Shown here: piece by piece, positions 3,062-48,384 of the stretch | How positions within the stretch are numbered: the first letter of the stretch is position 1 | Layout: every line of letters starts with the position of its first letter | From: Escherichia coli | Lineage (GTDB): Bacteria > Pseudomonadota > Gammaproteobacteria > Enterobacterales > Enterobacteriaceae | Length of the DNA stretch: 64,000 bases | NCBI RefSeq assembly: GCF_036507355.1 | Contig: NZ_AP027877.1 | Reading direction: 5' to 3' (one strand) | Translations under genes and position numbers: made by a program | The notes under the pieces: generated by a model | What the model was told of the DNA's origin: nothing | The model's database searches: none | The model's input: only the letters and a program-made list of their open reading frames with translations

Positions 3062-3916
3062 ATGCAACAAAAAATGATTCAATTTAGTGGCGATGTCTCA
3101 CTGCCAGCCATAGGGCAGGGAACATGGTATATGGGCGAAGATGCCAGTAAGTGTAAAACAGAAGTTGCTGCACTACGCGCGGGCATTGAGCTCGGTTTAA
3201 CTCTCATTGATACCGCCGAAATGTATGCCGATGGTGGTGCCGAAAAGGTGGTTGGGGAAGCATTAACCGGTCTGCGTGATAACGTCTTTCTCGTCTCTAA
3301 AGTCTATCCGTGGAATGCTGGCGGGCAAAAAGCGATAAATGCATGCGAAGCCAGTTTACGCCGTCTCAATACTGATTATCTCGATCTCTACTTATTACAC
3401 TGGTCTGGCAGTTTCGCTTTTGAAGAGACTGTCGCAGCGATGGAAAAATTGATCGCCCAGGGAAAAATCCGCCGCTGGGGCGTTTCGAACCTTGATTATG
3501 CTGATATGCAGGAACTCTGGCAGCTGCCGGGGGGAAATCAGTGTGCCACTAATCAGGTGCTTTACCATCTCGGTTCACGAGGGATTGAGTACGATCTACT
3601 CCCCTGGTGCCAGCAACAGCAGATGCCGGTGATGGCTTACAGTCCGTTAGCCCAGGCCGGGCGGTTGCGCAATGGACTGTTAAAAAACGCGGTAGTCAAC
3701 GAAATTGCACATGCTCACAATATCAGCGCGGCACAAGTATTGTTGGCGTGGGTAATCAGCCATCAGGGTGTGATGGCGATTCCAAAAGCGGCCACGATTG
3801 CCCATGTCCAACAGAATGCGGCTGTGCTTGAGGTCGAACTTTCGTCAGCGGAATTAGCCATGCTGGACAAAGCGTATCCGGCACCAAAAGGAAAAACTGC
3901 GCTGGATATGGTGTGA
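3062..3916 (+). CDS. yeaE: NADPH-dependent aldo-keto reductase YeaE
   Basis: 284 aa ORF; aldo-keto reductase family sequence recognised. Confidence 0.9.
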   Translation: MQQKMIQFSGDVSLPAIGQGTWYMGEDASKCKTEVAALRAGIELGLTLIDTAEMYADGGAEKVVGEALTGLRDNVFLVSKVYPWNAGGQKAINACEASLRRLNTDYLDLYLLHWSGSFAFEETVAAMEKLIAQGKIRRWGVSNLDYADMQELWQLPGGNQCATNQVLYHLGSRGIEYDLLPWCQQQQMPVMAYSPLAQAGRLRNGLLKNAVVNEIAHAHNISAAQVLLAWVISHQGVMAIPKAATIAHVQQNAAVLEVELSSAELAMLDKAYPAPKGKTALDMV

Positions 3917-3966
3917 TGTTGATACGTGCCGGATGCATCGCACCCGGCACACAACATTGACGCAAA

Positions 3967-4851
3967 TTAACGTTTGGCAACGCGAATGGATTGCGCCAGA
4001 TGTGCAGGTTTTTCTTTGGTCACTTTTTGCATTTCTGAGGCGTAAGCTGTTTCTACACAAACAAAGGTCTTGTAGCCATCATCCGGCATATCGCCCATGC
4101 TAACTGAAAGCGCCGGTCCCGGGTTCCAGCCTACAACGTTCAGATGATGCTGGTGGCCTACGGCGATAATACGATTCAGCGCTTCATCATTAATCACGCT
4201 GCAATCTTGCGGATTCAGATACACGCGATCGGTACGGTCAGGGAAGGTCTGAATACCGTCGGTCAGTACATCTTCTTTCGCGTCATTTACTTTATCAATG
4301 AAGCGATCGCCCAGCCCACTGACGCTTACCTTAGCGATATCACCCACGTTAAAGTAGGTATGCAGGGCAGAGGTGGTTTCAAATTCGCCGTGTGCTTCAA
4401 GATCGATTTCACAGGTTTTACCCACGCGGAAATGCGCTAACAGCGTAAAGTCGTGCGGCCAGAATTTTTTCGTCTCTTCGCTTTGTGTCAATTCAAAAGT
4501 CAGCGCTACGCCATCAGCATCTTCACGATGTGATTTCAGCGTCCACGGCAGGTTGCGGGCAAAACCGTGCGCAGGCAGGCCTCGTTGTGCCGCCGGACCA
4601 AACCACGGCCAGCAAACCGGTACGCCACCGCGAATAGCGACGCCATTTTTGAACGGTGTGTTGTTGCTCAACCACAGAACTTCTTCTTCACCCGCAGGTT
4701 TCCACGAGAGAAGGTGTGCGCCCTGTAATGCAAAAGAGGCTTTTACCTGGGGATGATCGACCACAATGAGGTCCAGTTCATCCAGTTTACGACGGGAGAG
4801 GACAGGGGAGATTTGTTCGATGACCGGAAGGGCAAAAATTTTCTTAATCAT
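3967..4851 (-). CDS. yeaD: Putative glucose-6-phosphate 1-epimerase YeaD
   Basis: ORF track gives 301 aa; internal ATG at 4851 (MIKKIFALPV) has an AGGA Shine-Dalgarno and matches the known N-terminus; aldose 1-epimerase-like. Confidence 0.88.
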   Translation of the reverse strand: MIKKIFALPVIEQISPVLSRRKLDELDLIVVDHPQVKASFALQGAHLLSWKPAGEEEVLWLSNNTPFKNGVAIRGGVPVCWPWFGPAAQRGLPAHGFARNLPWTLKSHREDADGVALTFELTQSEETKKFWPHDFTLLAHFRVGKTCEIDLEAHGEFETTSALHTYFNVGDIAKVSVSGLGDRFIDKVNDAKEDVLTDGIQTFPDRTDRVYLNPQDCSVINDEALNRIIAVGHQHHLNVVGWNPGPALSVSMGDMPDDGYKTFVCVETAYASEMQKVTKEKPAHLAQSIRVAKR

Positions 4852-12729: not shown

Positions 12730-13710
12730 ATGAAAAAAATACCTTTAGGCACAACGGATATTACGCTTTCGCGAATGGGGTTGGGGACATGGGCCATTGG
12801 CGGCGGTCCTGCATGGAATGGCGATCTCGATCGGCAAATATGTATTGATACGATTCTTGAAGCCCATCGTTGCGGCATTAATCTGATTGATACTGCACCA
12901 GGATATAACTTTGGCAATAGTGAAGTTATCGTCGGTCAGGCGTTAAAAAAACTGCCCCGTGAACAGGTTGTAGTAGAAACCAAATGCGGCATTGTCTGGG
13001 AACGAAAAGGAAGTTTATTCAACAAAGTTGGCGATCGGCAGTTGTATAAAAACCTTTCCCCGGAATCTATCCGCGAAGAGGTAGAAGCCAGCTTGCAACG
13101 TCTGGGTATTGATTACATCGATATCTACATGACGCACTGGCAGTCGGTGCCGCCATTTTTTACGCCGATCGCTGAAACTGTCACAGTGCTTAATGAGTTA
13201 AAGGCTGAAGGGAAAATTCGCGCTATAGGCGCTGCTAACGTCGATGCTGACCATATCCGCGAGTATCTGCAATATGGTGAACTGGATATTATTCAGGCGA
13301 AATACAGTATCCTCGACCGGGCAATGGAAAACGAACTGCTGCCGCTATGTCGTGATAATGGCATTGTGGTTCAGGTTTATTCCCCGCTAGAGCAGGGATT
13401 GTTGACCGGCACCATCACTCGTGATTACGTTCCGGGCGGCGCTCGGGCAAATAAAGTCTGGTTCCAGCGTGAAAACATGCTGAAAGTGATTGATATGCTT
13501 GAACAGTGGCAGCCACTTTGTGCTCGTTATCAGTGCACAATTCCCACTCTGGCACTGGCGTGGATATTAAAACAGAGTGATTTAATCTCCATTCTTAGTG
13601 GGGCTACTGCACCGGAACAGGTACGCGAAAATGTCGCGGCACTGAATATCAACTTATCGGATGCAGACGCAACATTGATGAGGGAAATGGCAGAGGCCCT
13701 GGAGCGTTAA
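12730..13710 (+). CDS. ydjG: Aldo-keto reductase YdjG
   Basis: 326 aa; aldo-keto reductase family sequence recognised. Confidence 0.9.
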   Translation: MKKIPLGTTDITLSRMGLGTWAIGGGPAWNGDLDRQICIDTILEAHRCGINLIDTAPGYNFGNSEVIVGQALKKLPREQVVVETKCGIVWERKGSLFNKVGDRQLYKNLSPESIREEVEASLQRLGIDYIDIYMTHWQSVPPFFTPIAETVTVLNELKAEGKIRAIGAANVDADHIREYLQYGELDIIQAKYSILDRAMENELLPLCRDNGIVVQVYSPLEQGLLTGTITRDYVPGGARANKVWFQRENMLKVIDMLEQWQPLCARYQCTIPTLALAWILKQSDLISILSGATAPEQVRENVAALNINLSDADATLMREMAEALER

Positions 13711-13846
13711 ATACTCAACACGATTCACCTCTGTTTCTGTGAAAACTGTGATGAAAATCTGTGATTCAAACAGGTTATTTTGAAAGTAAACATCGGTTAT
13801 GCGATAATCGCGCTAATGTGATGTAAAAAGATACAGGGGTGTAATC

Positions 13847-14605
13847 GTGGCGGCAAAAGACAGGATTCAGGCAATTAAGCAAATGGTTGCCAACGATAAA
13901 AAGGTGACAGTCTCAAATTTGAGTGGGATTTTTCAGGTAACCGAAGAAACCATTCGCCGCGATCTTGAGAAGCTGGAAGATGAAGGCTTTTTGACCAGAA
14001 CCTATGGTGGTGCTGTTTTAAATACAGCGATGTTGACGGAGAATATCCATTTTTATAAGCGCGCTTCATCGTTTTATGAAGAGAAGCAGCTTATTGCACG
14101 CAAGGCACTACCCTTTATCGACAATAAAACCACCATGGCAGCCGATTCCAGTAGTACCGTAATGGAATTGCTCAAATTGTTACAGGACCGTAGTGACCTG
14201 ACGTTGCTAACCAACTCGGCGGAAGCGATTCATGTTCTGGCTCAGTCAGAAATTAAAGTCGTTTCAACGGGTGGGGAACTAAACAAAAATACACTTTCAC
14301 TGCAAGGAAGAATTACTAAAGAGATCATCAGCCGCTACCATGTCGATATCATGGTAATGAGTTGTAAAGGTCTTGATATTAACAGCGGCGCGCTGGACTC
14401 TAATGAAGCGGAAGCTGAAATCAAAAAGACAATGATCCGTCAGGCGACAGAAGTTGCGTTATTGGTTGATCACTCTAAGTTTGATCGCAAAGCTTTTGTC
14501 CAGTTAGCTGACTTTAGTCATATTAATTACATAATAACTGATAAATCACCGGGTGCAGAGTGGATAGCATTTTGCAAAGACAATAATATCCAGCTGGTGT
14601 GGTAA
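13847..14605 (+). CDS. ydjF: DeoR-family transcriptional regulator YdjF
   Basis: 252 aa; N-terminal helix-turn-helix (VSNLSGIFQVTEETIRRDLEKLE) and DeoR C-terminal sugar-phosphate sensor domain. Confidence 0.9.
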   Translation: MAAKDRIQAIKQMVANDKKVTVSNLSGIFQVTEETIRRDLEKLEDEGFLTRTYGGAVLNTAMLTENIHFYKRASSFYEEKQLIARKALPFIDNKTTMAADSSSTVMELLKLLQDRSDLTLLTNSAEAIHVLAQSEIKVVSTGGELNKNTLSLQGRITKEIISRYHVDIMVMSCKGLDINSGALDSNEAEAEIKKTMIRQATEVALLVDHSKFDRKAFVQLADFSHINYIITDKSPGAEWIAFCKDNNIQLVW

Positions 14606-14722
14606 TTTAAGCACACGTTGTCAATATTATTTGTTCCTGCGCCTGGAAATAAAATGATGATAAAGATGCGGCAAGTGAATTTGCCGCAATTGCTACCTTT
14701 TTTAGCAAATCCGAGGCACCCA

Positions 14723-16081
14723 ATGGAACAATATGATCAAATTGGCGCAAGACTGGACCGCTTGCCTTTGGCCCGGTTTCATTATCGTATATTTGGTATT
14801 ATAAGCTTTAGTCTGTTATTAACAGGGTTTTTGAGTTACTCCGGTAATGTCGTCTTAGCAAAGCTGGTAAGCAATGGATGGTCAAATAATTTCCTCAATG
14901 CCGCCTTTACCTCGGCATTAATGTTTAGTTATTTCATCGGCTCTCTTACCGGTGGGTTCATCGGTGATTACTTTGGGCGGCGCAGGGCGTTTCGCATAAA
15001 TCTTCTCATCGTCGGTATTGCTGCAACAGGGGCCGCTTTTGTCCCTGATATGTACTGGCTCATCTTCTTTCGCTTCCTGATGGGAACAGGAATGGGGACG
15101 CTGATTATGGTTGGCTATGCCTCATTTACGGAGTTTACCCCCGCGACGGTGCGTGGAAAATGGTCCGCGCGGCTCTCATTTGTTGGTAACTGGTCGCCCA
15201 TGCTGTCTGCGGCGATAGGCGTGGTGGTTATCGCTTTTTTTAGTTGGCGGATAATGTTTCTGCTGGGTGGTATTGGCATACTGTTAGCCTGGTTTCTCTC
15301 AGGTAAATACTTTATCGAGTCGCCACGATGGCTGGCAGGGAAAGGGCAAATCGCAGGTGCAGAATGCCAACTTCGTGAAGTAGAGCAGCAAATTGAAAGA
15401 GAGAAGAGTATTCGTTTACCCCCGCTTACTTCGTATCAGAGCAACAGCAAAGTTAAAGTAATCAAGGGTACTTTCTGGCTCCTGTTTAAAGGTGAAATGT
15501 TACGACGTACATTAGTCGCGATTACTGTTTTAATTGCAATGAACATTTCGCTTTATACCATCACCGTATGGATACCGACCATATTTGTTAACTCCGGCAT
15601 TGATGTCGATAAATCAATATTAATGACCGCTGTTATTATGATTGGCGCTCCGGTAGGAATATTTATTGCGGCATTAATTATTGATCATTTTCCTCGTCGG
15701 TTATTTGGCTCCACCTTACTTATTATTATTGCCGTGTTAGGCTATATCTATTCAATTCAGACTACAGAGTGGGCGATTTTAATCTATGGCCTGGTGATGA
15801 TCTTCTTTTTATACATGTATGTTTGCTTCGCGTCGGCGGTTTATATCCCGGAGCTTTGGCCAACGCATTTACGCCTGCGCGGTTCGGGTTTCGTTAATGC
15901 CGTCGGACGGATCGTCGCAGTCTTCACGCCCTATGGCGTTGCGGCATTATTAACACATTATGGGTCGATCACGGTGTTTATGGTGCTTGGTGTCATGTTA
16001 GTGCTCTGTGCGCTGGTTCTCTCTATTTTTGGCATCGAAACGCGGAAGGTGTCGCTGGAAGAGATTTCTGAGGTGAACTAA
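14723..16081 (+). CDS. ydjE: MFS transporter YdjE
   Basis: 452 aa from ATG 14723 (MEQYDQIGARLDRL), paralogous to ydjK; the ORF-track upstream extension has no support. Confidence 0.88.
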   Translation: MEQYDQIGARLDRLPLARFHYRIFGIISFSLLLTGFLSYSGNVVLAKLVSNGWSNNFLNAAFTSALMFSYFIGSLTGGFIGDYFGRRRAFRINLLIVGIAATGAAFVPDMYWLIFFRFLMGTGMGTLIMVGYASFTEFTPATVRGKWSARLSFVGNWSPMLSAAIGVVVIAFFSWRIMFLLGGIGILLAWFLSGKYFIESPRWLAGKGQIAGAECQLREVEQQIEREKSIRLPPLTSYQSNSKVKVIKGTFWLLFKGEMLRRTLVAITVLIAMNISLYTITVWIPTIFVNSGIDVDKSILMTAVIMIGAPVGIFIAALIIDHFPRRLFGSTLLIIIAVLGYIYSIQTTEWAILIYGLVMIFFLYMYVCFASAVYIPELWPTHLRLRGSGFVNAVGRIVAVFTPYGVAALLTHYGSITVFMVLGVMLVLCALVLSIFGIETRKVSLEEISEVN

Positions 16082-21728: not shown

Positions 21729-23690
21729 ATGCGGTTGTTTATTGCCGAAAAACCGAGTCTGGCGCGCGCCATTGCTGATGTCCTGCCCAAACCGCACCGT
21801 AAAGGCGATGGCTTTATCGAGTGCGGTAATGGTCAGGTGGTGACCTGGTGTATCGGTCACCTGCTTGAGCAGGCGCAGCCAGACGCCTACGACAGCCGCT
21901 ATGCGCGCTGGAATCTTGCGGATTTGCCGATTGTCCCGGAAAAGTGGCAATTACAGCCCCGACCCTCCGTGACCAAACAACTTAACGTCATCAAACGGTA
22001 CCTGCATGAAGCCAGCGAAATCGTTCACGCCGGGGACCCGGATCGCGAAGGGCAACTGCTGGTGGATGAAGTGCTGGACTATCTACAACTGGCACCGGAA
22101 AAGCGCCAGCAGGTGCAGCGTTGCTTGATAAACGACCTGAACCCGCAGGCGGTTGAGCGGGCGATCGACCGTCTTCGTTCCAACAGTGAGTTTGTACCGC
22201 TGTGCGTTTCTGCGCTGGCGCGAGCGCGTGCCGACTGGCTGTACGGCATCAATATGACCCGTGCGTATACCATTCTCGGTCGCAATGCCGGTTATCAGGG
22301 CGTGCTTTCCGTGGGACGCGTGCAGACGCCCGTGCTTGGGCTGGTGGTGCGCCGCGATGAAGAGATTGAAAACTTCGTGGCGAAAGACTTCTTTGAAGTC
22401 AAAGCACATATCGTGACACCTGCCGATGAGCGGTTTACCGCTATCTGGCAACCGAGCGAAGCGTGTGAACCGTACCAGGATGAAGAAGGGCGCTTGTTAC
22501 ATCGTCCACTGGCGGAGCATGTGGTTAACCGCATTAGTGGTCAACCGGCTATTGTCACCAGCTATAACGATAAACGGGAATCAGAATCCGCGCCGCTGCC
22601 GTTTTCGCTTTCGGCGTTGCAGATTGAAGCGGCAAAACGCTTTGGTCTGAGCGCGCAGAACGTGCTTGATATCTGCCAGAAGCTGTACGAAACGCACAAG
22701 CTAATCACTTATCCGCGTTCCGATTGTCGCTATTTGCCAGAAGAACATTTTGCCGGACGCCACGCGGTGATGAATGCCATCAGCGTTCATGCACCAGATC
22801 TGTTGCCGCAGCCAGTGGTAGATCCAGATATACGCAACCGCTGTTGGGATGACAAAAAGGTCGATGCGCACCACGCCATCATTCCGACCGCACGGAGTTC
22901 TGCGATCAACCTGACGGAGAACGAAGCGAAGGTCTATAACCTGATTGCTCGTCAGTACTTGATGCAGTTCTGCCCGGATGCGGTGTTCCGCAAGTGTGTT
23001 ATCGAACTGGACATTGCCAAAGGCAAATTTGTCGCTAAAGCGCGTTTTCTTGCTGAAGCAGGTTGGCGCGCGCTGTTAGGCAGCAAAGAGCGCGATGAAG
23101 AAAACGACGGCACGCCATTGCCTGTGGTGGCGAAAGGCGATGAGTTGCTGTGTGAAAAAGGTGAAGTGGTAGAGCGGCAAACCCAGCCGCCGCGCCATTT
23201 TACCGATGCAACACTGCTTTCGGCGATGACCGGGATCGCGCGCTTTGTGCAGGACAAAGATCTGAAAAAGATCCTTCGTGCGACCGATGGTCTGGGGACA
23301 GAAGCAACGCGTGCCGGGATTATTGAACTGTTGTTCAAGCGTGGTTTCCTCACCAAAAAAGGGCGCTATATCCACTCCACCGACGCCGGAAAAGCGTTAT
23401 TCCATTCGCTGCCAGAAATGGCTACGCGACCGGACATGACCGCGCACTGGGAATCGGTGCTGACGCAAATCAGCGAAAAGCAGTGTCGCTATCAGGACTT
23501 TATGCAGCCGCTGGTGGGGACGCTATATCAGCTTATTGATCAAGCCAAACGTACTCCGGTGCGGCAGTTTCGCGGCATTGTGGCTCCGGGCAGTGGTGGC
23601 AGTGCTGATAAGAAAAAGGCTGCACCGCGTAAACGTAGTGCGAAAAAAAGTCCGCCAGCAGATGAAGCCGGAAGCGGGGCGATAGCGTAA
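21729..23690 (+). CDS. topB: DNA topoisomerase III
   Basis: 653 aa from ATG 21729 ([19 protein letters not shown]), 4 bp after the selD stop; type IA topoisomerase TOPRIM domain. Confidence 0.95.
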
Positions 23691-23817
23691 GCGAGCGAAT
23701 CTTTCGTGCTATTCGAGTCATATTCTGAAATATCCAGCGGATCAAGAAAATTCGTTGGATATTTTTTTTGCATGGATAAAATTATCGCCTCTAAAGTATG
23801 TAATAACAGGGAATGTG

Positions 23818-24858
23818 ATGAAAAAAGTTTTATTACAAAACCATCCTGGGAGCGAGAAGTATTCTTTTAATGGCTGGGAAATATTTAATAGTAATTTTGA
23901 ACGGATGATTAAAGAAAATAAGGCCATGCTGCTTTGTAAGTGGGGGGGGTATTTAACATGTGTTGTCGCTGTAATGTTTGTATTCGCAGCGATAACATCC
24001 AACGGTTTGAATGAAAGAGGCCTGATTACCGCGGGATGCTCTTTTCTTTATCTATTAATTATGATGGGGCTTATTGTTCGGGCCGGTTTTAAAGCAAAAA
24101 AAGAACAACTGCATTATTATCAGGCTAAAGGTATTGAGCCGCTCAGTATCGAGAAGTTACAGGCGCTACAATTGATCGCACCTTATCGATTCTATCATAA
24201 GCAATGGTCTGAAACGCTGGAGTTCTGGCCGCGAAAGCCTGAACCTGGCAAAGATACCTTCCAATATCATGTGCTTCCTTTTGACTCGATCGATATCATA
24301 AGTAAAAGACGCGAGTCTTTAGAGGATCAATGGGGTATCGAAGATAGCGAAAGTTATTGTGCCTTAATGGAGCATTTTCTTTCTGGCGACCATGGAGCCA
24401 ATACCTTTAAAGCAAACATGGAGGAAGCCCCAGAGCAGGTTATCGCCTTGTTGAATAAATTTGCTGTTTTTCCCTCAGACTATATCTCTGATTGCGCTAA
24501 TCATAGCTCCGGTAAATCCTCGGCGAAGCTAATATGGGCGGCGGAATTATCATGGATGATCTCGATATCAAGCACAGCTTTTCAAAACGGGACAATTGAA
24601 GAAGAACTGGCCTGGCATTATATAATGCTTGCCTCTCGAAAGGCGCACGAGTTGTTCGAAAGCGAAGAAGATTATCAAAAAAATAGTCTAATGGGATTTC
24701 TTTACTGGCATATCTGCTGCTATCGCAGAAAGTTAACGGATGCTGAACTTGAAGCGTGTTATCGTTACGATAAGCAGTTTTGGGAGCACTATAGTAAGAA
24801 ATGCCGTTGGCCCATAAGAAATGTTCCCTGGGGAGCATCATCCGTTAAATACTCATAA
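23818..24858 (+). CDS. ynjI: Inner-membrane DUF1266 protein YnjI
   Basis: 346 aa from ATG 23818 (MKKVLLQNHPGSEKY); AT-rich by eye; two hydrophobic segments. Confidence 0.8.
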   Translation: MKKVLLQNHPGSEKYSFNGWEIFNSNFERMIKENKAMLLCKWGGYLTCVVAVMFVFAAITSNGLNERGLITAGCSFLYLLIMMGLIVRAGFKAKKEQLHYYQAKGIEPLSIEKLQALQLIAPYRFYHKQWSETLEFWPRKPEPGKDTFQYHVLPFDSIDIISKRRESLEDQWGIEDSESYCALMEHFLSGDHGANTFKANMEEAPEQVIALLNKFAVFPSDYISDCANHSSGKSSAKLIWAAELSWMISISSTAFQNGTIEEELAWHYIMLASRKAHELFESEEDYQKNSLMGFLYWHICCYRRKLTDAELEACYRYDKQFWEHYSKKCRWPIRNVPWGASSVKYS

Positions 24859-24870
24859 ACGCCTGAAATT

Positions 24871-24965
24871 TTGCCGGGGGCGCTGCGCTTGCCCGGCCTA
24901 CATTAGAGCGTAACTGCAATGAATTGTGCCCATTTGTAGGCCTGATAAGCGTAGCGCCATCAGGC
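24871..24965. repeat. REP/BIME repetitive extragenic palindromic element
   Basis: TTGCCGGGGGCGCTGCGCTTGCCCGGCCTAC ... GTAGGCCTGATAAGCGTAGCGCCATCAGGC, canonical REP motifs between convergent ynjI and gdhA. Confidence 0.85.
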
Positions 24966-24974
24966 ATTTACAAC

Positions 24975-26318
24975 TTAAATCACACCCTGCGCCAGCATCG
25001 CATCGGCAACCTTCACAAAACCGGCAATGTTCGCGCCCTGCACGTAGTTGGTTTGCTCACCTTCACCACCATGCTCAACACAGGCATGGTGGATATCCAG
25101 CATGATGTGATGCAAACGTGCGTCAACTTTCTCGGCTTTCCAGCCCAGGCGCGCAGCGTTTTGCGCCATTTCAAGGCCTGACGTTGCTACACCGCCAGCA
25201 TTAGCCGCTTTACCCGGTGCAAACAGTACGCCTGCCTGCTGGAACAGTTCAGTCGCTTCGATGGTGGTTGGCATATTTGCCCCTTCAGCGACGGCTTTAA
25301 CGCCATTGGCGATAAGCTGATGCGCGGCGTCAACATCCAGTTCATTCTGGGTGGCGCAAGGCAGGGCGATATCAACCGGTACAGACCACGGCTGTTGGCC
25401 TTCGAGATAGACCAGACCAAATTCTTTGGCGTAATCTGCCACTCGACCATCGCGGCTGGCTTTGATTTCGATAAGACGTGCCAGTTTCTCTTTCGTGAAT
25501 CCGCTTTCATCAACTACAGTGCCGCTGGAGTCTGACGCAGTGATCACACGAGCACCAAATTCCATCGCTTTTTCGATAGCGTACTGGGCGACGTTGCCGG
25601 AGCCAGAAACGGAAACGCGCATTCCTTCAAAACCCATACCGTGGCGTTTTAGCATTGCTTCTGTGAAATAAACCAGACCGTAGCCGGTAGCTTCCGGGCG
25701 AATAAGACTGCCGCCAAATGAAAGGCCCTTACCGGTGAAGACGCAGGCGGTATTGTTGGAGAGCTTTTTCATCATCCCCGCCATAAAGCCGACTTCACGA
25801 CCACCAACCCCGATATCACCTGCCGGAACGTCGGTATCCGCGCCCAGGTGGCGATACAGTTCAGTCATCAGCGCCTGGCAAAAACGCATCACTTCACCTT
25901 CGCTTTTTCCTTTCGGATCGAAATCGCTGCCGCCTTTACCACCGCCCATCGGCAGAGTAGTCAGGGCATTTTTGAAGGTTTGTTCGAAGCCGAGGAATTT
26001 GAGAATGGAGAGGTTAACTGACGGATGGAAGCGCATACCGCCTTTGTACGGGCCGATGGCAGAGCTGAACTGCACACGCCATGCACGGTTGACCTGTACC
26101 TGATTGCGATCATCAACCCATACCACGCGAAACTGGATCACGCGCTCCGGTTCAACCAGACGCTCCAGTAATGACATCTGGCGATATTTTGGATTTTGTT
26201 CAAGAAAAGGCCAGAGTGTGGTCATTACTTCACGAACGGCTTGCGCGAACTCGGTTTGATTCGGGTCGCGCTTTTGGACATGGTTGAGGAATGACTCCAG
26301 AGAATATGTCTGATCCAT
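24975..26318 (-). CDS. gdhA: NADP-specific glutamate dehydrogenase
   Basis: 447 aa, MDQTYSLESFLNHVQKRDP..., Glu/Leu/Phe/Val dehydrogenase motif GGGKGG. Confidence 0.97.
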   Translation of the reverse strand: MDQTYSLESFLNHVQKRDPNQTEFAQAVREVMTTLWPFLEQNPKYRQMSLLERLVEPERVIQFRVVWVDDRNQVQVNRAWRVQFSSAIGPYKGGMRFHPSVNLSILKFLGFEQTFKNALTTLPMGGGKGGSDFDPKGKSEGEVMRFCQALMTELYRHLGADTDVPAGDIGVGGREVGFMAGMMKKLSNNTACVFTGKGLSFGGSLIRPEATGYGLVYFTEAMLKRHGMGFEGMRVSVSGSGNVAQYAIEKAMEFGARVITASDSSGTVVDESGFTKEKLARLIEIKASRDGRVADYAKEFGLVYLEGQQPWSVPVDIALPCATQNELDVDAAHQLIANGVKAVAEGANMPTTIEATELFQQAGVLFAPGKAANAGGVATSGLEMAQNAARLGWKAEKVDARLHHIMLDIHHACVEHGGEGEQTNYVQGANIAGFVKVADAMLAQGVI

Positions 26319-46231: not shown

Positions 46232-46432
46232 TGAACCCCTCCAGACAGAAAAGACAAAACTTCCTTAAAGCTAACCCGTTGCCACTGAAACGACAAGCGA
46301 CAGCGGGCTGAATGGTGGTTAAAACGTCATACAGGAATCCTCTGAAAGCGGAGCCGTTTCGTTCATGGGCTTGAAAAAGCGCCCAATGTATTCCAGGCTT
46401 ATCTAACACGCTGATAAACAAGAGGACGGAAT

Positions 46433-46771
46433 ATGAACAAGAATATGGCAGGAATTCTGAGTGCAGCGGCGGTATTAACCATGCTGGCGGGTTGTACGGC
46501 TTATGATCGTACCAAAGACCAGTTTGTACAGCCTGTGGTGAAAGACGTCAAAAAAGGCATGAGCCGGGCGCAGGTTGCACAAATTGCGGGTAAACCTTCG
46601 TCTGAAGTGAGCATGATCCATGCTCGTGGTACTTGCCAGACCTACATCCTGGGTCAACGTGATGGTAAAGCAGAAACCTACTTTGTCGCGTTAGATGATA
46701 CTGGACATGTCATCAACTCCGGTTATCAGACCTGTGCTGAATACGACACTGATCCACAGGCTGCGAAGTAA
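46433..46771 (+). CDS. osmE: Osmotically inducible lipoprotein OsmE
   Basis: 112 aa; lipobox LAGC after the signal peptide. Confidence 0.92.
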
Positions 46772-46802
46772 TCACTTCGTCTGAAAGCTTGAGTAACAAC
46801 GG

Positions 46803-46829
46803 AAACCGGCCATTGCGCCGGTTTTTTTT
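46803..46829 (+). terminator. Rho-independent terminator of osmE
   Basis: AAACCGGC-CATTGC-GCCGGTTT stem-loop followed by a T8 run. Confidence 0.85.
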
Positions 46830-47069
46830 GGTCTGAGTTCTTAATTATCTTCGCGAATTATTTGCCCGAAATGTGAAGAGGGTCATAACCGCAGGTCAAG
46901 GAGAGACAATTTATAAGGTCAAAGAAATACTATTGCTCAGGTCTATACCGTATACTCCTTTCAGCCACAAAAAAAGTCATGTTGGTTTCGCAAGTTACCC
47001 AGAGCATGGAAGCAGGTTAAGGCTTGCGGAGTGTCTGGCTGACAGATAATCGTCGATGAGGGCAGTTTT

Positions 47070-47390
47070 ATGGAAAAGAAACACATTTATCTGTTTTGTT
47101 CTGCGGGCATGTCTACCTCTTTACTGGTATCAAAAATGCGCGCACAGGCAGAAAAATATGAAGTTCCGGTCATTATTGAAGCATTTCCGGAAACACTGGC
47201 TGGTGAAAAAGGTCAGAATGCCGATGTCGTGTTATTAGGGCCGCAGATTGCTTATATGTTGCCCGAAATCCAGCGTTTGTTACCCAACAAACCGGTTGAA
47301 GTAATTGACTCGCTGCTTTATGGCAAAGTCGATGGTTTAGGCGTGCTTAAGGCTGCGGTTGCAGCGATTAAAAAAGCCGCAGCAAATTAA
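47070..47390 (+). CDS. chbB: PTS N,N'-diacetylchitobiose-specific EIIB component
   Basis: 106 aa, [29 protein letters not shown] with the phospho-acceptor Cys in CSAGMSTS. Confidence 0.95.
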
Positions 47391-47475
47391 TTTATTTTAA
47401 ATTTTCCCGTCAAAGAGTTATTTCATAAATCAATACCGCAATATTTAAATTGCGGTTTTTAAGGGTATTTTTCTA

Positions 47476-47631
47476 TGAGTAATGTTATTGCATCGCTTGA
47501 AAAGGTACTCCTCCCTTTTGCAGTTAAAATAGGAAAGCAGCCACACGTTAATGCAATCAAAAATGGCTTTATTCGCTTAATGCCGTTAACCCTTGCGGGG
47601 GCCATGTTTGTATTAATTAACAACGTTTTTC
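47476..47631 (+). pseudogene. chbC: chbC 5' fragment (PTS chitobiose EIIC), truncated after about codon 52 by IS1
   Basis: ATG at 47476 translates [52 protein letters not shown], then runs straight into the IS1 left inverted repeat at 47632. Confidence 0.9.
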
Positions 47632-47686
47632 GGTGATGCTGCCAACTTACTGATTTAGTGTATGATGGTGTTTTTGAGGTGCTCCA

Positions 47687-47962
47687 GTGGCTTCTGTTTC
47701 TATCAGCTGTCCCTCCTGTTCAGCTACTGACGGGGTGGTGCGTAACGGCAAAAGCACCGCCGGACATCAGCGCTATCTCTGCTCTCACTGTCGTAAAACA
47801 TGGCAACTGCAGTTCACTTACACCGCTTCTCAACCCGGTACGCACCAGAAAATCATTGATATGGCCATGAATGGCGTTGGATGCCGGGCAACAGCCCGCA
47901 TTATGGGCGTTGGCCTCAACACGATTTTACGTCACTTAAAAAACTCAGGCCGCAGTCGGTAA
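47687..47962 (+). CDS. insA: IS1 InsA (transposition inhibitor; N-terminal part of the InsAB' transposase)
   Basis: 91 aa, [39 protein letters not shown], zinc finger plus helix-turn-helix. Confidence 0.97.
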
Positions 47963-48384
47963 CCTCGCGCATACAGCCGGGCAGTGACGTCATCGTCTGC
48001 GCGGAAATGGACGAACAGTGGGGCTATGTCGGGGCTAAATCGCGCCAGCGCTGGCTGTTTTACGCGTATGACAGGCTCCGGAAGACGGTTGTTGCGCACG
48101 TATTCGGTGAACGCACGATGGCGACGCTGGGGCGTCTTATGAGCCTGCTGTCACCCTTTGACGTGGTGATATGGATGACGGATGGCTGGCCGCTGTATGA
48201 ATCCCGCCTGAAGGGAAAGCTGCACGTAATCAGCAAGCGATATACGCAGCGAATTGAGCGGCATAACCTGAATCTGAGGCAGCACCTGGCACGGCTGGGA
48301 CGGAAGTCGCTGTCGTTCTCAAAATCGGTGGAGCTGCATGACAAAGTCATCGGGCATTATCTGAACATAAAACACTATCAATAA
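47881..48384 (+). CDS. insB: IS1 InsB frame (expressed as the InsAB' transposase by -1 frameshift at TTAAAAAACTC)
   Basis: 167 aa frame [16 protein letters not shown]...HYLNIKHYQ; slippery A6C site lies near the end of insA. Confidence 0.95.

Follow-up and report, generated by a model that had tools for sequence, protein, structure and literature searches.

The ynjI gene of Escherichia coli is one of the ten loci that Salscheider et al. (PMC3950696) newly added to the BglJ-RcsB regulon. In that work, promoter-lacZ fusions revealed a strong activation of the ynjI promoter by BglJ-RcsB, and mutation of the predicted BglJ-RcsB box, whose centre is located 65-68 nt upstream from the start site of transcription (TSS), abolished it (PMC3950696). 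Expression was low and rose moderately in an hns stpA mutant, which indicates partial repression by H-NS/StpA (PMC3950696). In a member of this regulon, a BglJ-RcsB box (core wwTTCykA) would be expected about 57-79 nt upstream of the TSS. YnjI is listed as an 'inner membrane protein' (PMC3950696, citing its reference 34) and is annotated in K-12 as PRK11380 'hypothetical protein' or as 'DUF1266 domain-containing protein YnjI'. In K-12, DUF1266 is also carried by YbeR and YbeU, and the ybeR-djlB and ybeU-djlC gene pairs, which overlap by 4 nt, lie beside hscC and the Sel1-repeat genes ybeQ and ybeT, that is, within the genes of the third E. coli Hsp70 system (HscC-DjlB/DjlC). Our literature search yielded no functional account of DUF1266 (PF06889), ybeU or ybeR. 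Here, we examine the ynjI locus of E. coli contig NZ_AP027877.1 (assembly GCF_036507355.1) in a stretch of 64,000 nt, hereafter the window, where the gene order is ydjA, selD, topB (+), ynjI (+), gdhA (-), ynjH, nudG. We believe, with a probability only slightly above one half (about 0.55), that ynjI is a transcription unit of its own under BglJ-RcsB regulation, that its product would act as a membrane-tethered DUF1266 binding module, and that the gene has long been exchanged among strains within old haplotypes.

The identity of the gene is clear. The name ynjI given in the original prediction was confirmed by the match to the NCBIfam equivalog PRK11380 (NF008480; 667.6 bits for a cutoff of 386, residues 1-346 aligning with positions 1-350 of the 353 of the model), by identity with b1762 of K-12 MG1655 (1041 nt) and by the topB-gdhA synteny. 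Both coding sequences differ in 9 nt and two amino acids (G44 and L291 in the window, F44 and Q291 in K-12), and the topB-ynjI gap, 127 bp in both, in a single nucleotide. This is the same gene at the same locus with no difference of substance, and its name is carried in K-12 and in thousands of RefSeq genome annotations; the open reading frame (ORF) is the already annotated E. coli ynjI and, as a finding, an ordinary one. The start had nevertheless been placed at 23755, 63 nt too far upstream. The TTG at this position is only the start of the longest ORF (23755-24858, + strand). Because of the K-12 annotation, the end-to-end PRK11380 match and the position of that TTG within a terminator-like hairpin, we take as the true start the ATG at 23818, which has an AGGGAA sequence 5 nt upstream (23808-23813); the gene ends with the TAA at 24858. 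The features of the locus are summarized in Table 1.

Table 1. Features of the topB-ynjI-gdhA region and their positions in the window
Feature	Position	Strand	Remarks
topB 3' end, haplotype-specific TopB C-terminal tail	23500..23690	+	Left edge of the variable segment
Candidate BglJ-RcsB box TATTCTGA	23721..23728	+	Match to core wwTTCykA
topB terminator (probable, intrinsic)	23727..23769	+	16-bp-stem hairpin 23727-23765, then T8 23762-23769
Putative -10 hexamer TAAAAT	23777..23782	+	Read from sequence; inferred TSS near 23789-23790
ynjI coding sequence	23818..24858	+	346 aa plus stop; PRK11380 equivalog match, K-12 annotation
N-terminal motif LLQNHPG, codons 5-11	23830..23850	+	Conserved; predicted cytoplasmic
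G8 homopolymer, codons 42-44	23942..23949	+	TGG GGG GGG; K-12 TGG GGG TTT
Transmembrane (TM) helical hairpin	23944..24081	+	TM1 ~aa 43-62, loop NGLNERG, TM2 ~aa 69-88
Cytoplasmic all-alpha domain (predicted), aa 92-341	24091..24840	+	DUF1266 aa 167-338, nt 24316-24831
Pair of repetitive extragenic palindromic (REP) sequences, BIME-like	24879..24958	.	24879-24902 forward, 24935-24958 reverse, 32 nt apart

The coding sequence had been described as AT-rich by eye, and the windowed computation agrees with this impression: its GC content is 41.4% versus 49.6% for the window, only 4.3% of the windows of equal length being as low, and its GC content at third codon positions (GC3, 41%) ranks third lowest among the 51 long ORFs. 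The genes flanking it have about 53% GC. We found neither a typical composition nor a broad conservation: GC was low, and of the 5426 complete E. coli genomes 3505 had ynjI DNA, as opposed to 5425 that had the flanks. All this could be taken to mean that ynjI is an islet recently acquired between topB and gdhA by horizontal transfer and not yet ameliorated: GC and GC3 are low and GC is unlike that of the flanks in most hosts, the gene occurs in only 65% of the complete E. coli genomes and sporadically over 100,044 species representatives, and its expression is sensitive to H-NS/StpA (PMC3950696). However, the marks of mobility were missing where we searched for them. Over 12 kb to each side of the gene no tRNA gene occurs, no direct repeats flank it, no integrase or transposase is found at the locus in the window, and, mislabelled records aside, no homologue appeared in the phage and plasmid collections. 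The sole match in the plasmid collection, NZ_OL790696.1, is a mislabelled E. coli chromosome of 4.8 Mb, and the sole match in phages, OR844794.1 ('Escherichia phage ECO111 5-P'), is an unannotated 1.9-kb sequence, probably derived from the host, with a fragment of ynjI at its end.

The comparison with related bacteria also argues against a recent arrival. In Pseudocitrobacter, ynjI occupies the same slot (selD-topB-X-gdhA), next to the same TopB tail and downstream of a conserved promoter/hairpin region, and its synonymous divergence (dS) from the window gene, 1.18, equals that of the flanks (1.22 for topB and 1.31 for gdhA), with a ratio of nonsynonymous to synonymous divergence (dN/dS) of 0.085. 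Similarly, the dS with respect to Escherichia sp. MOD1-EC7003 (0.30) is in step with the flanks (0.36 and 0.71), and dN/dS ranged from 0.04 to 0.14 across comparisons. Since the dS values are in step with those of the flanks, any acquisition of ynjI would predate the split between Escherichia and Pseudocitrobacter. Moreover, the gene has about 42% GC in every enterobacterial host examined, where the flanks have 53-56%, and its low GC would therefore be persistent and no sign of youth. Finally, the breakpoints that we describe below fall inside topB, ynjI and the REP sequences, which also speaks against insertion of an islet. On the basis of these sequence comparisons, we consider a recent acquisition rather improbable and ynjI to be, as far as they indicate, an old and persistently AT-rich accessory gene under purifying selection. 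Of the 'candidate acquired gene' of the original prediction, what stands is that it is accessory, compositionally foreign and controlled by H-NS; that it is recent does not, given the lack of a mobility signature and the flank-matched dS.

The interval between topB and gdhA was found in four states, namely K-12-type ynjI (the majority), a rare mosaic allele of the gene, an empty slot, and a cassette encoding an Hsp70 plus J/Sel1 proteins. The 3505 genomes with ynjI, the 1496 with an empty slot and the approximately 445 with the cassette make up essentially all the 5426. In the empty haplotype, which includes that of O25b:H4-ST131, the spacer measures 76 bp and contains only one REP. It is not the product of a clean deletion, since its topB shows no more than 58-82% identity over the final ~190 nt and its gdhA differs too, in the ~30 nt at the end of the gene. 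In fact, the identity of topB to the empty haplotype goes from 96-100% down to 82, 74 and 58% over those final ~190 nt, and three types of TopB C-terminal tail track the slot states, the one linked to ynjI being common to Pseudocitrobacter. The cassette (~8% of the genomes; both J genes occur in 61) has 42.9% GC and a TopB tail of its own, and contains no ynjI remnant (e.g. NZ_CP019455.1, 4445500-4457500, corresponding to 23691-24974 of the window). It encodes an Hsp70 of 566 aa that shares 43% identity with HscC along its whole length, and one or two proteins of ~650 aa in which a DjlC-like J domain (E 9e-8) is fused to Sel1 repeats.

The mosaic allele, found in 13 complete genomes, encodes a protein 66-68% identical to that of the window. 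It matches the window at 94-100% in the promoter and the initial ~130 nt and at 100% beyond about 24900 (inside the first REP), but between this point and about 23950, where TM1 begins, identity is only about 65%. Since its dS is saturated versus 0.04-0.09 in the flanks, and its dN/dS is about 0.04, the comparison indicates that this allele was imported by recombination and is functional. Further ynjI alleles with 60% and 58% identity were found in public reads, and the same slot is used by Escherichia sp., Pseudocitrobacter and all the divergent ynjI alleles. We believe that the polymorphism of the slot is best explained by homologous recombination of old haplotypes of ~1.5-6 kb, bounded by the topB tail and the gdhA stop, together with gene loss. 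The patchiness of ynjI would then be due to a recombinational swapping of haplotypes with breakpoints in topB, ynjI and REP, and the gene provides an example of a low GC content and a patchy distribution that need not mean recent acquisition.

Gene loss was evident in several forms. IS1, IS10 and IS110-family insertion sequences (IS) are present in or beside ynjI in some strains. A lineage (GCA_054596495.1) with a nonsense mutation at codon 42 (W42*, TGG to TAG, 23941-23943) gives gene calls of 264 aa that start at M83, and the corresponding protein cluster has 752 member sequences, so that a considerable number of strains carry ynjI as a pseudogene. The W42* site and the breakpoint of the mosaic allele adjoin a run of eight G residues where the window differs from K-12 and from all other alleles, which have TTT at codon 44. 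A frameshift in this run was considered as the cause of the 264-aa variant and discarded in favour of W42*. Using a 51-nt probe across the run and 11-nt seeds, we found the exact G8 form in 450 genomes, 537 that differ from it by 1-2 nt, and about 2490 that carry TTT. The F44G change at the start of TM1 requires three adjacent T-to-G changes, which looks like a stepwise extension of the homopolymer. The absence of the gene from ~35% of the genomes, the W42* cluster and the IS1, IS10 and IS110-family insertions would also be expected of a decaying, functionless ORF kept by drift. This is very hard to reconcile with purifying selection over a dS above 1, with an architecture and about 30 residues that are maintained in members from different phyla with as little as ~20% identity, and with a fold predicted at high confidence and a dedicated, conserved and activator-dependent promoter, and we give it almost no credit.

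With regard to transcription, ynjI is a unit separate from topB and gdhA, to which no obvious link had been noted: a hairpin and a T8 tract form a probable terminator after topB, and gdhA is convergent. The hairpin folds with -18 kcal/mol (z = -4.5), and none of 200 shuffled sequences was equally stable. The AT-rich tract previously noted upstream of the gene (TTTTTTTTGCATGGATAAAATTATCGCC, 23762-23789) is indeed upstream of the true start, although it lies within the gene coordinates then proposed; its simplest interpretation is the T-tail that follows the terminator hairpin of topB, together with the probable core promoter of ynjI, and not the boundary of an island. The motif TATTCTGA is the sole match to wwTTCykA in the 127-bp spacer, at ~65 nt from the inferred TSS. 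With the BglJ-RcsB regulon, ynjI shares its AT-rich DNA and a site that was mapped by mutation at 65-68 nt upstream of the TSS (PMC3950696), with the difference that here the region from the candidate box to the putative -10 hexamer is filled by the topB terminator hairpin, an arrangement of which we saw no description. The spacing between TATTCTGA and TAAAAT is thus consistent with, although short of proof of, the published layout of the ynjI promoter. A generic sigma-70 scan gave no promoter on the + strand upstream of ynjI and the -35 region is poor; a plausible reading is that the scan missed it because the promoter is activator-dependent with a poor -35.

Conservation of this region supports the same picture. 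About 95 nt, comprising GAGTCAaATTCTGAAAT, the hairpin, the T8 tract and GATAAAATT, are conserved in Escherichia sp. MOD1-EC7003 and Pseudocitrobacter, unlike the sequence directly after the topB stop, which is completely diverged across these genera. The site of the candidate BglJ-RcsB box is kept in both, and the changes in the hairpin of Pseudocitrobacter preserve base pairing. A search of Rfam (E<=1) gave no match within 23500-25100. According to our proposal, ynjI would be kept at a low level, partly by H-NS/StpA, and then switched on by BglJ-RcsB acting ~65 nt upstream of the TSS.

The predicted protein has the two N-terminal hydrophobic segments and the soluble DUF1266-type domain that had been proposed. 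Kyte-Doolittle hydropathy (window of 19) peaked at 2.01 and 2.32 in two segments (aa 46-64 and 69-87), both are present in nearly all family members, and the AlphaFold2 (AF2) model of the full-length protein (predicted local distance difference test, pLDDT, 89.6; predicted template modelling score, pTM, 0.87) has helices at 35-60 and 66-104. Because the lysine and arginine residues are distributed according to the positive-inside rule (seven in the N-terminal tail, one in the 7-residue loop and four just after TM2), both ends of YnjI are predicted to be inside (N-in/C-in), which would place the large C-terminal domain in the cytoplasm. Pfam DUF1266 (PF06889) matched over the full model (positions 1-175 of 175; 93.6 bits for a threshold of 27, E 2.1e-26), and AF2 predicted 13 helices for the soluble domain (pLDDT 91.1, pTM 0.89). 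A YnjI profile against the sequences of the Protein Data Bank gave a best E of 0.17, no solved fold being matched. In 55 family members reaching down to ~20% identity, Q7 and N8 of the N-terminal motif are nearly invariant, and they are invariant together with P10 in a subset of 12 sequences. Also conserved are an EQxxYY motif directly after TM2 and, in the soluble domain, W130, E132, L134, E135, P138, W172, G190, H192, W240, E262, A265, W266, F280, N289, G293, W297 and W338.

This architecture bears on what YnjI may do. Since neither an enzyme-like signature nor a relative of solved structure is present, we favor a membrane-tethered protein-binding module: a helical hairpin (aa ~43-88) would anchor YnjI in the inner membrane, and the LLQNHPG peptide and a ~250-residue all-alpha DUF1266 domain would face the cytoplasm. 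A role as small-molecule exporter or transport accessory of the inner membrane was also considered, as YnjI is a membrane protein and a ynjI overexpression clone passed the first Ala-Ala toxicity round of a screen for alanine exporters (PMC10299036). That clone, however, was dropped at the second screening round (PMC10299036), and a protein with only two TM helices, a large cytoplasmic domain and no match to transporter families makes such a role extremely unlikely.

Similarity searches showed that the family is small and scattered. An exhaustive phmmer search of 1.84 billion representative proteins yielded 83 hits for the YnjI clade at E<=1e-3, about 50 of them full-length (340-400 aa) with the same architecture and 20-35% identity. 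In a scan of 100,044 species representatives, which was pattern-based on an alignment of 12 sequences and in which absence from one representative is no proof of absence from the species, the only close relatives were Escherichia sp. MOD1-EC7003 (91%) and Pseudocitrobacter vendiensis (82%). Distant members were found in Photorhabdus (about 16 species), several Bacteroidota and Ignatzschineria. The distribution is thus that of a gene that is accessory in E. coli and sporadic elsewhere, with the same slot in Pseudocitrobacter. In the loci examined of Photorhabdus, Bacteroidota and Ignatzschineria there is no conserved partner gene; the Photorhabdus homologue stands alone between zur and lldD, and one Sinomicrobium locus has a gene of the SUKH-1 (SMI1/KNR4) immunity family downstream of the homologue. 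The family is compositionally atypical in most hosts examined. Its genes are AT-richer than their surroundings in enterobacteria and Photorhabdus, and GC-richer in Chitinophaga (56 vs 51%), Sinomicrobium (53.5 vs 44%) and Sphingobacterium (48 vs 42%). Two contigs from Bacillales assemblies, of Bacillus coahuilensis m4-4 (926 nt) and Alkalicoccobacillus porphyridii (266 nt), carry YnjI fragments 100% identical to E. coli, which are almost certainly contamination.

The association of DUF1266 with J proteins gives a possible lead to function. The coupling of a DUF1266 gene with djlB or djlC is not restricted to K-12: Salmonella has two DUF1266-DjlB-type pairs plus an Hsp70 gene, and Leminorella has such a pair in an unrelated context and without Hsp70. 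Because the pair recurs in those two genera, gene order suggests that a soluble DUF1266 protein and a tail-anchored DjlB-type J protein are the products of a conserved, translationally coupled two-gene module, represented in three genera. YbeR and YbeU would reach the cytoplasmic face of the inner membrane through their tail-anchored J partners (presumptive), as YnjI would do through its own hairpin; they differ from YnjI, which has the N-terminal peptide, the TM hairpin and a conserved region at aa 92-166, and lacks a downstream J gene. The cassette that replaces ynjI in some strains is paralogous to the HscC-DjlB/DjlC system in having an HscC-like Hsp70, a DjlC-like J domain and Sel1 repeats like YbeQ and YbeT, although it is an alternative cassette outside this window and its J and Sel1 parts are fused in one protein. 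Our best lead is that DUF1266 modules may work with the membrane-associated machinery of HscC-type Hsp70s and DjlB-DjlC J proteins as client, adaptor or regulator. The broader idea that HscC-type Hsp70s have in DUF1266 their missing client, adaptor or regulator domain, that YnjI is its self-anchored version, and that the slot swaps modules of a single H-NS-silenced membrane-proteostasis or conflict system, is an argument by analogy that we put forward very tentatively and would not expect to hold in full. If true, the third Hsp70 system of E. coli, long an orphan, would gain a partner that can be tested. The ybeQ-ybeR-djlB-ybeT-ybeU-djlC-hscC cluster also varies among E. coli genomes, its ybeR-djlC part being complete in 3689, partial in ~730 and absent in ~1010 of the 5426 genomes; the number of complete clusters is near that of ynjI-positive genomes (3505), a comparison of totals alone.

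The variability of the slot could also be viewed as that of a small defence hotspot exchanging systems, in which YnjI, anchored in the membrane, would serve for abortive infection, exclusion or immunity as a single-gene system. A fixed slot that is polymorphic both in gene presence and in alleles, silencing, AT-richness and sporadic distribution would fit, as would the SUKH-1 immunity-family gene after the Bacteroidota homologue and the PADLOC matches of the cassette proteins (PDC-M61B, E 1.5e-4, and a PtuA model on the Sel1 region). The latter are nonetheless weak and located on repeat regions. YnjI itself matched no family at E<=1 in PADLOC-DB v2 or PHROGs, its gene-wide dN/dS (0.04-0.14) has no sign of an arms race, and neither a toxin, a partner nor neighbouring defence genes are found in the E. 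coli or Photorhabdus loci. We judge a defence role unlikely.

Taken together, the data favor a tethered DUF1266 binding module under BglJ-RcsB regulation whose gene would be kept, swapped or lost through recombination of whole haplotypes between the topB tail and the gdhA stop. Several observations weigh against parts of this explanation. The topology of YnjI is a prediction from hydropathy and charge. The core wwTTCykA occurs at chance frequency across the window (32 matches for 33 expected). Loss is frequent (35% of the genomes, the W42* lineage and the IS insertions), which means that many backgrounds can do without ynjI. The similarity of YnjI to YbeR and YbeU is very remote (pairwise BLAST E 0.04-0.06), no J-domain gene follows ynjI, the REP sequences and the convergent gdhA being next, and no J or Hsp70 gene neighbours the homologue in the Photorhabdus, Bacteroidota and Ignatzschineria loci examined. 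A DUF1266 domain hidden in the J/Sel1 proteins of the cassette was looked for and rejected (hhalign probability 0.08%). Thus, the link to Hsp70 and J proteins is one of guilt by association, and the shared slot may be just a recombination hotspot. As ynjI is already known and annotated, the finding changes little in itself; the polymorphism of the slot and the link of DUF1266 to HscC are leads of modest interest, and the coupling of DUF1266 with J genes, plus the HscC-like cassette in the ynjI slot, provides a testable hypothesis that links two orphan sets of proteins.

Downstream of ynjI, the REP element that had been proposed to close the unit was found as two inverted REPs rather than one. 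The 24-nt inverted repeat, 83% complementary, is in the spacer of the convergent ynjI and gdhA. It is similar to REP sequences and bacterial interspersed mosaic elements (BIME) in having two imperfect palindromes ending ...CTTATCAGGCCTAC, inverted, in the 3' spacer of convergent genes, and differs in that the first unit is degenerate (CTTGCCCGGCCTAC). The full REP consensus (36-mer, up to 3 mismatches) gave no match in the search, and the pair was detected with the shorter 3' core plus inverted repeats. This core occurs five times in the window (0.37 expected) and, in the pair, is exact in one copy and has two mismatches in the other. In both strands, the fold of the pair has about -49 kcal/mol (z -3.6 to -3.95). 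IS621 targets REP sequences, and in some strains, among them E. coli S3 (3430-4410), IS110-family elements (IS621, ISEc20) are found between ynjI and gdhA at the position of the REPs. A genomic SELEX (systematic evolution of ligands by exponential enrichment) study reported an RpoS-holoenzyme peak (intensity 79.5) in the gdhA/ynjI spacer (PMC5493296); this peak coincides with the REP region (24859-24974), where no promoter would be expected.

Low GC is not exclusive of ynjI in the window. Similar or lower values were observed in the stretches 51691-53900, 59951-63800, 13321-15300 and 46381-47990, with the minimum (32.9%) near 52451, and the two lowest GC3 values among the 51 ORFs corresponded to 52696-53511 (0.32) and 60850-62748 (0.37).

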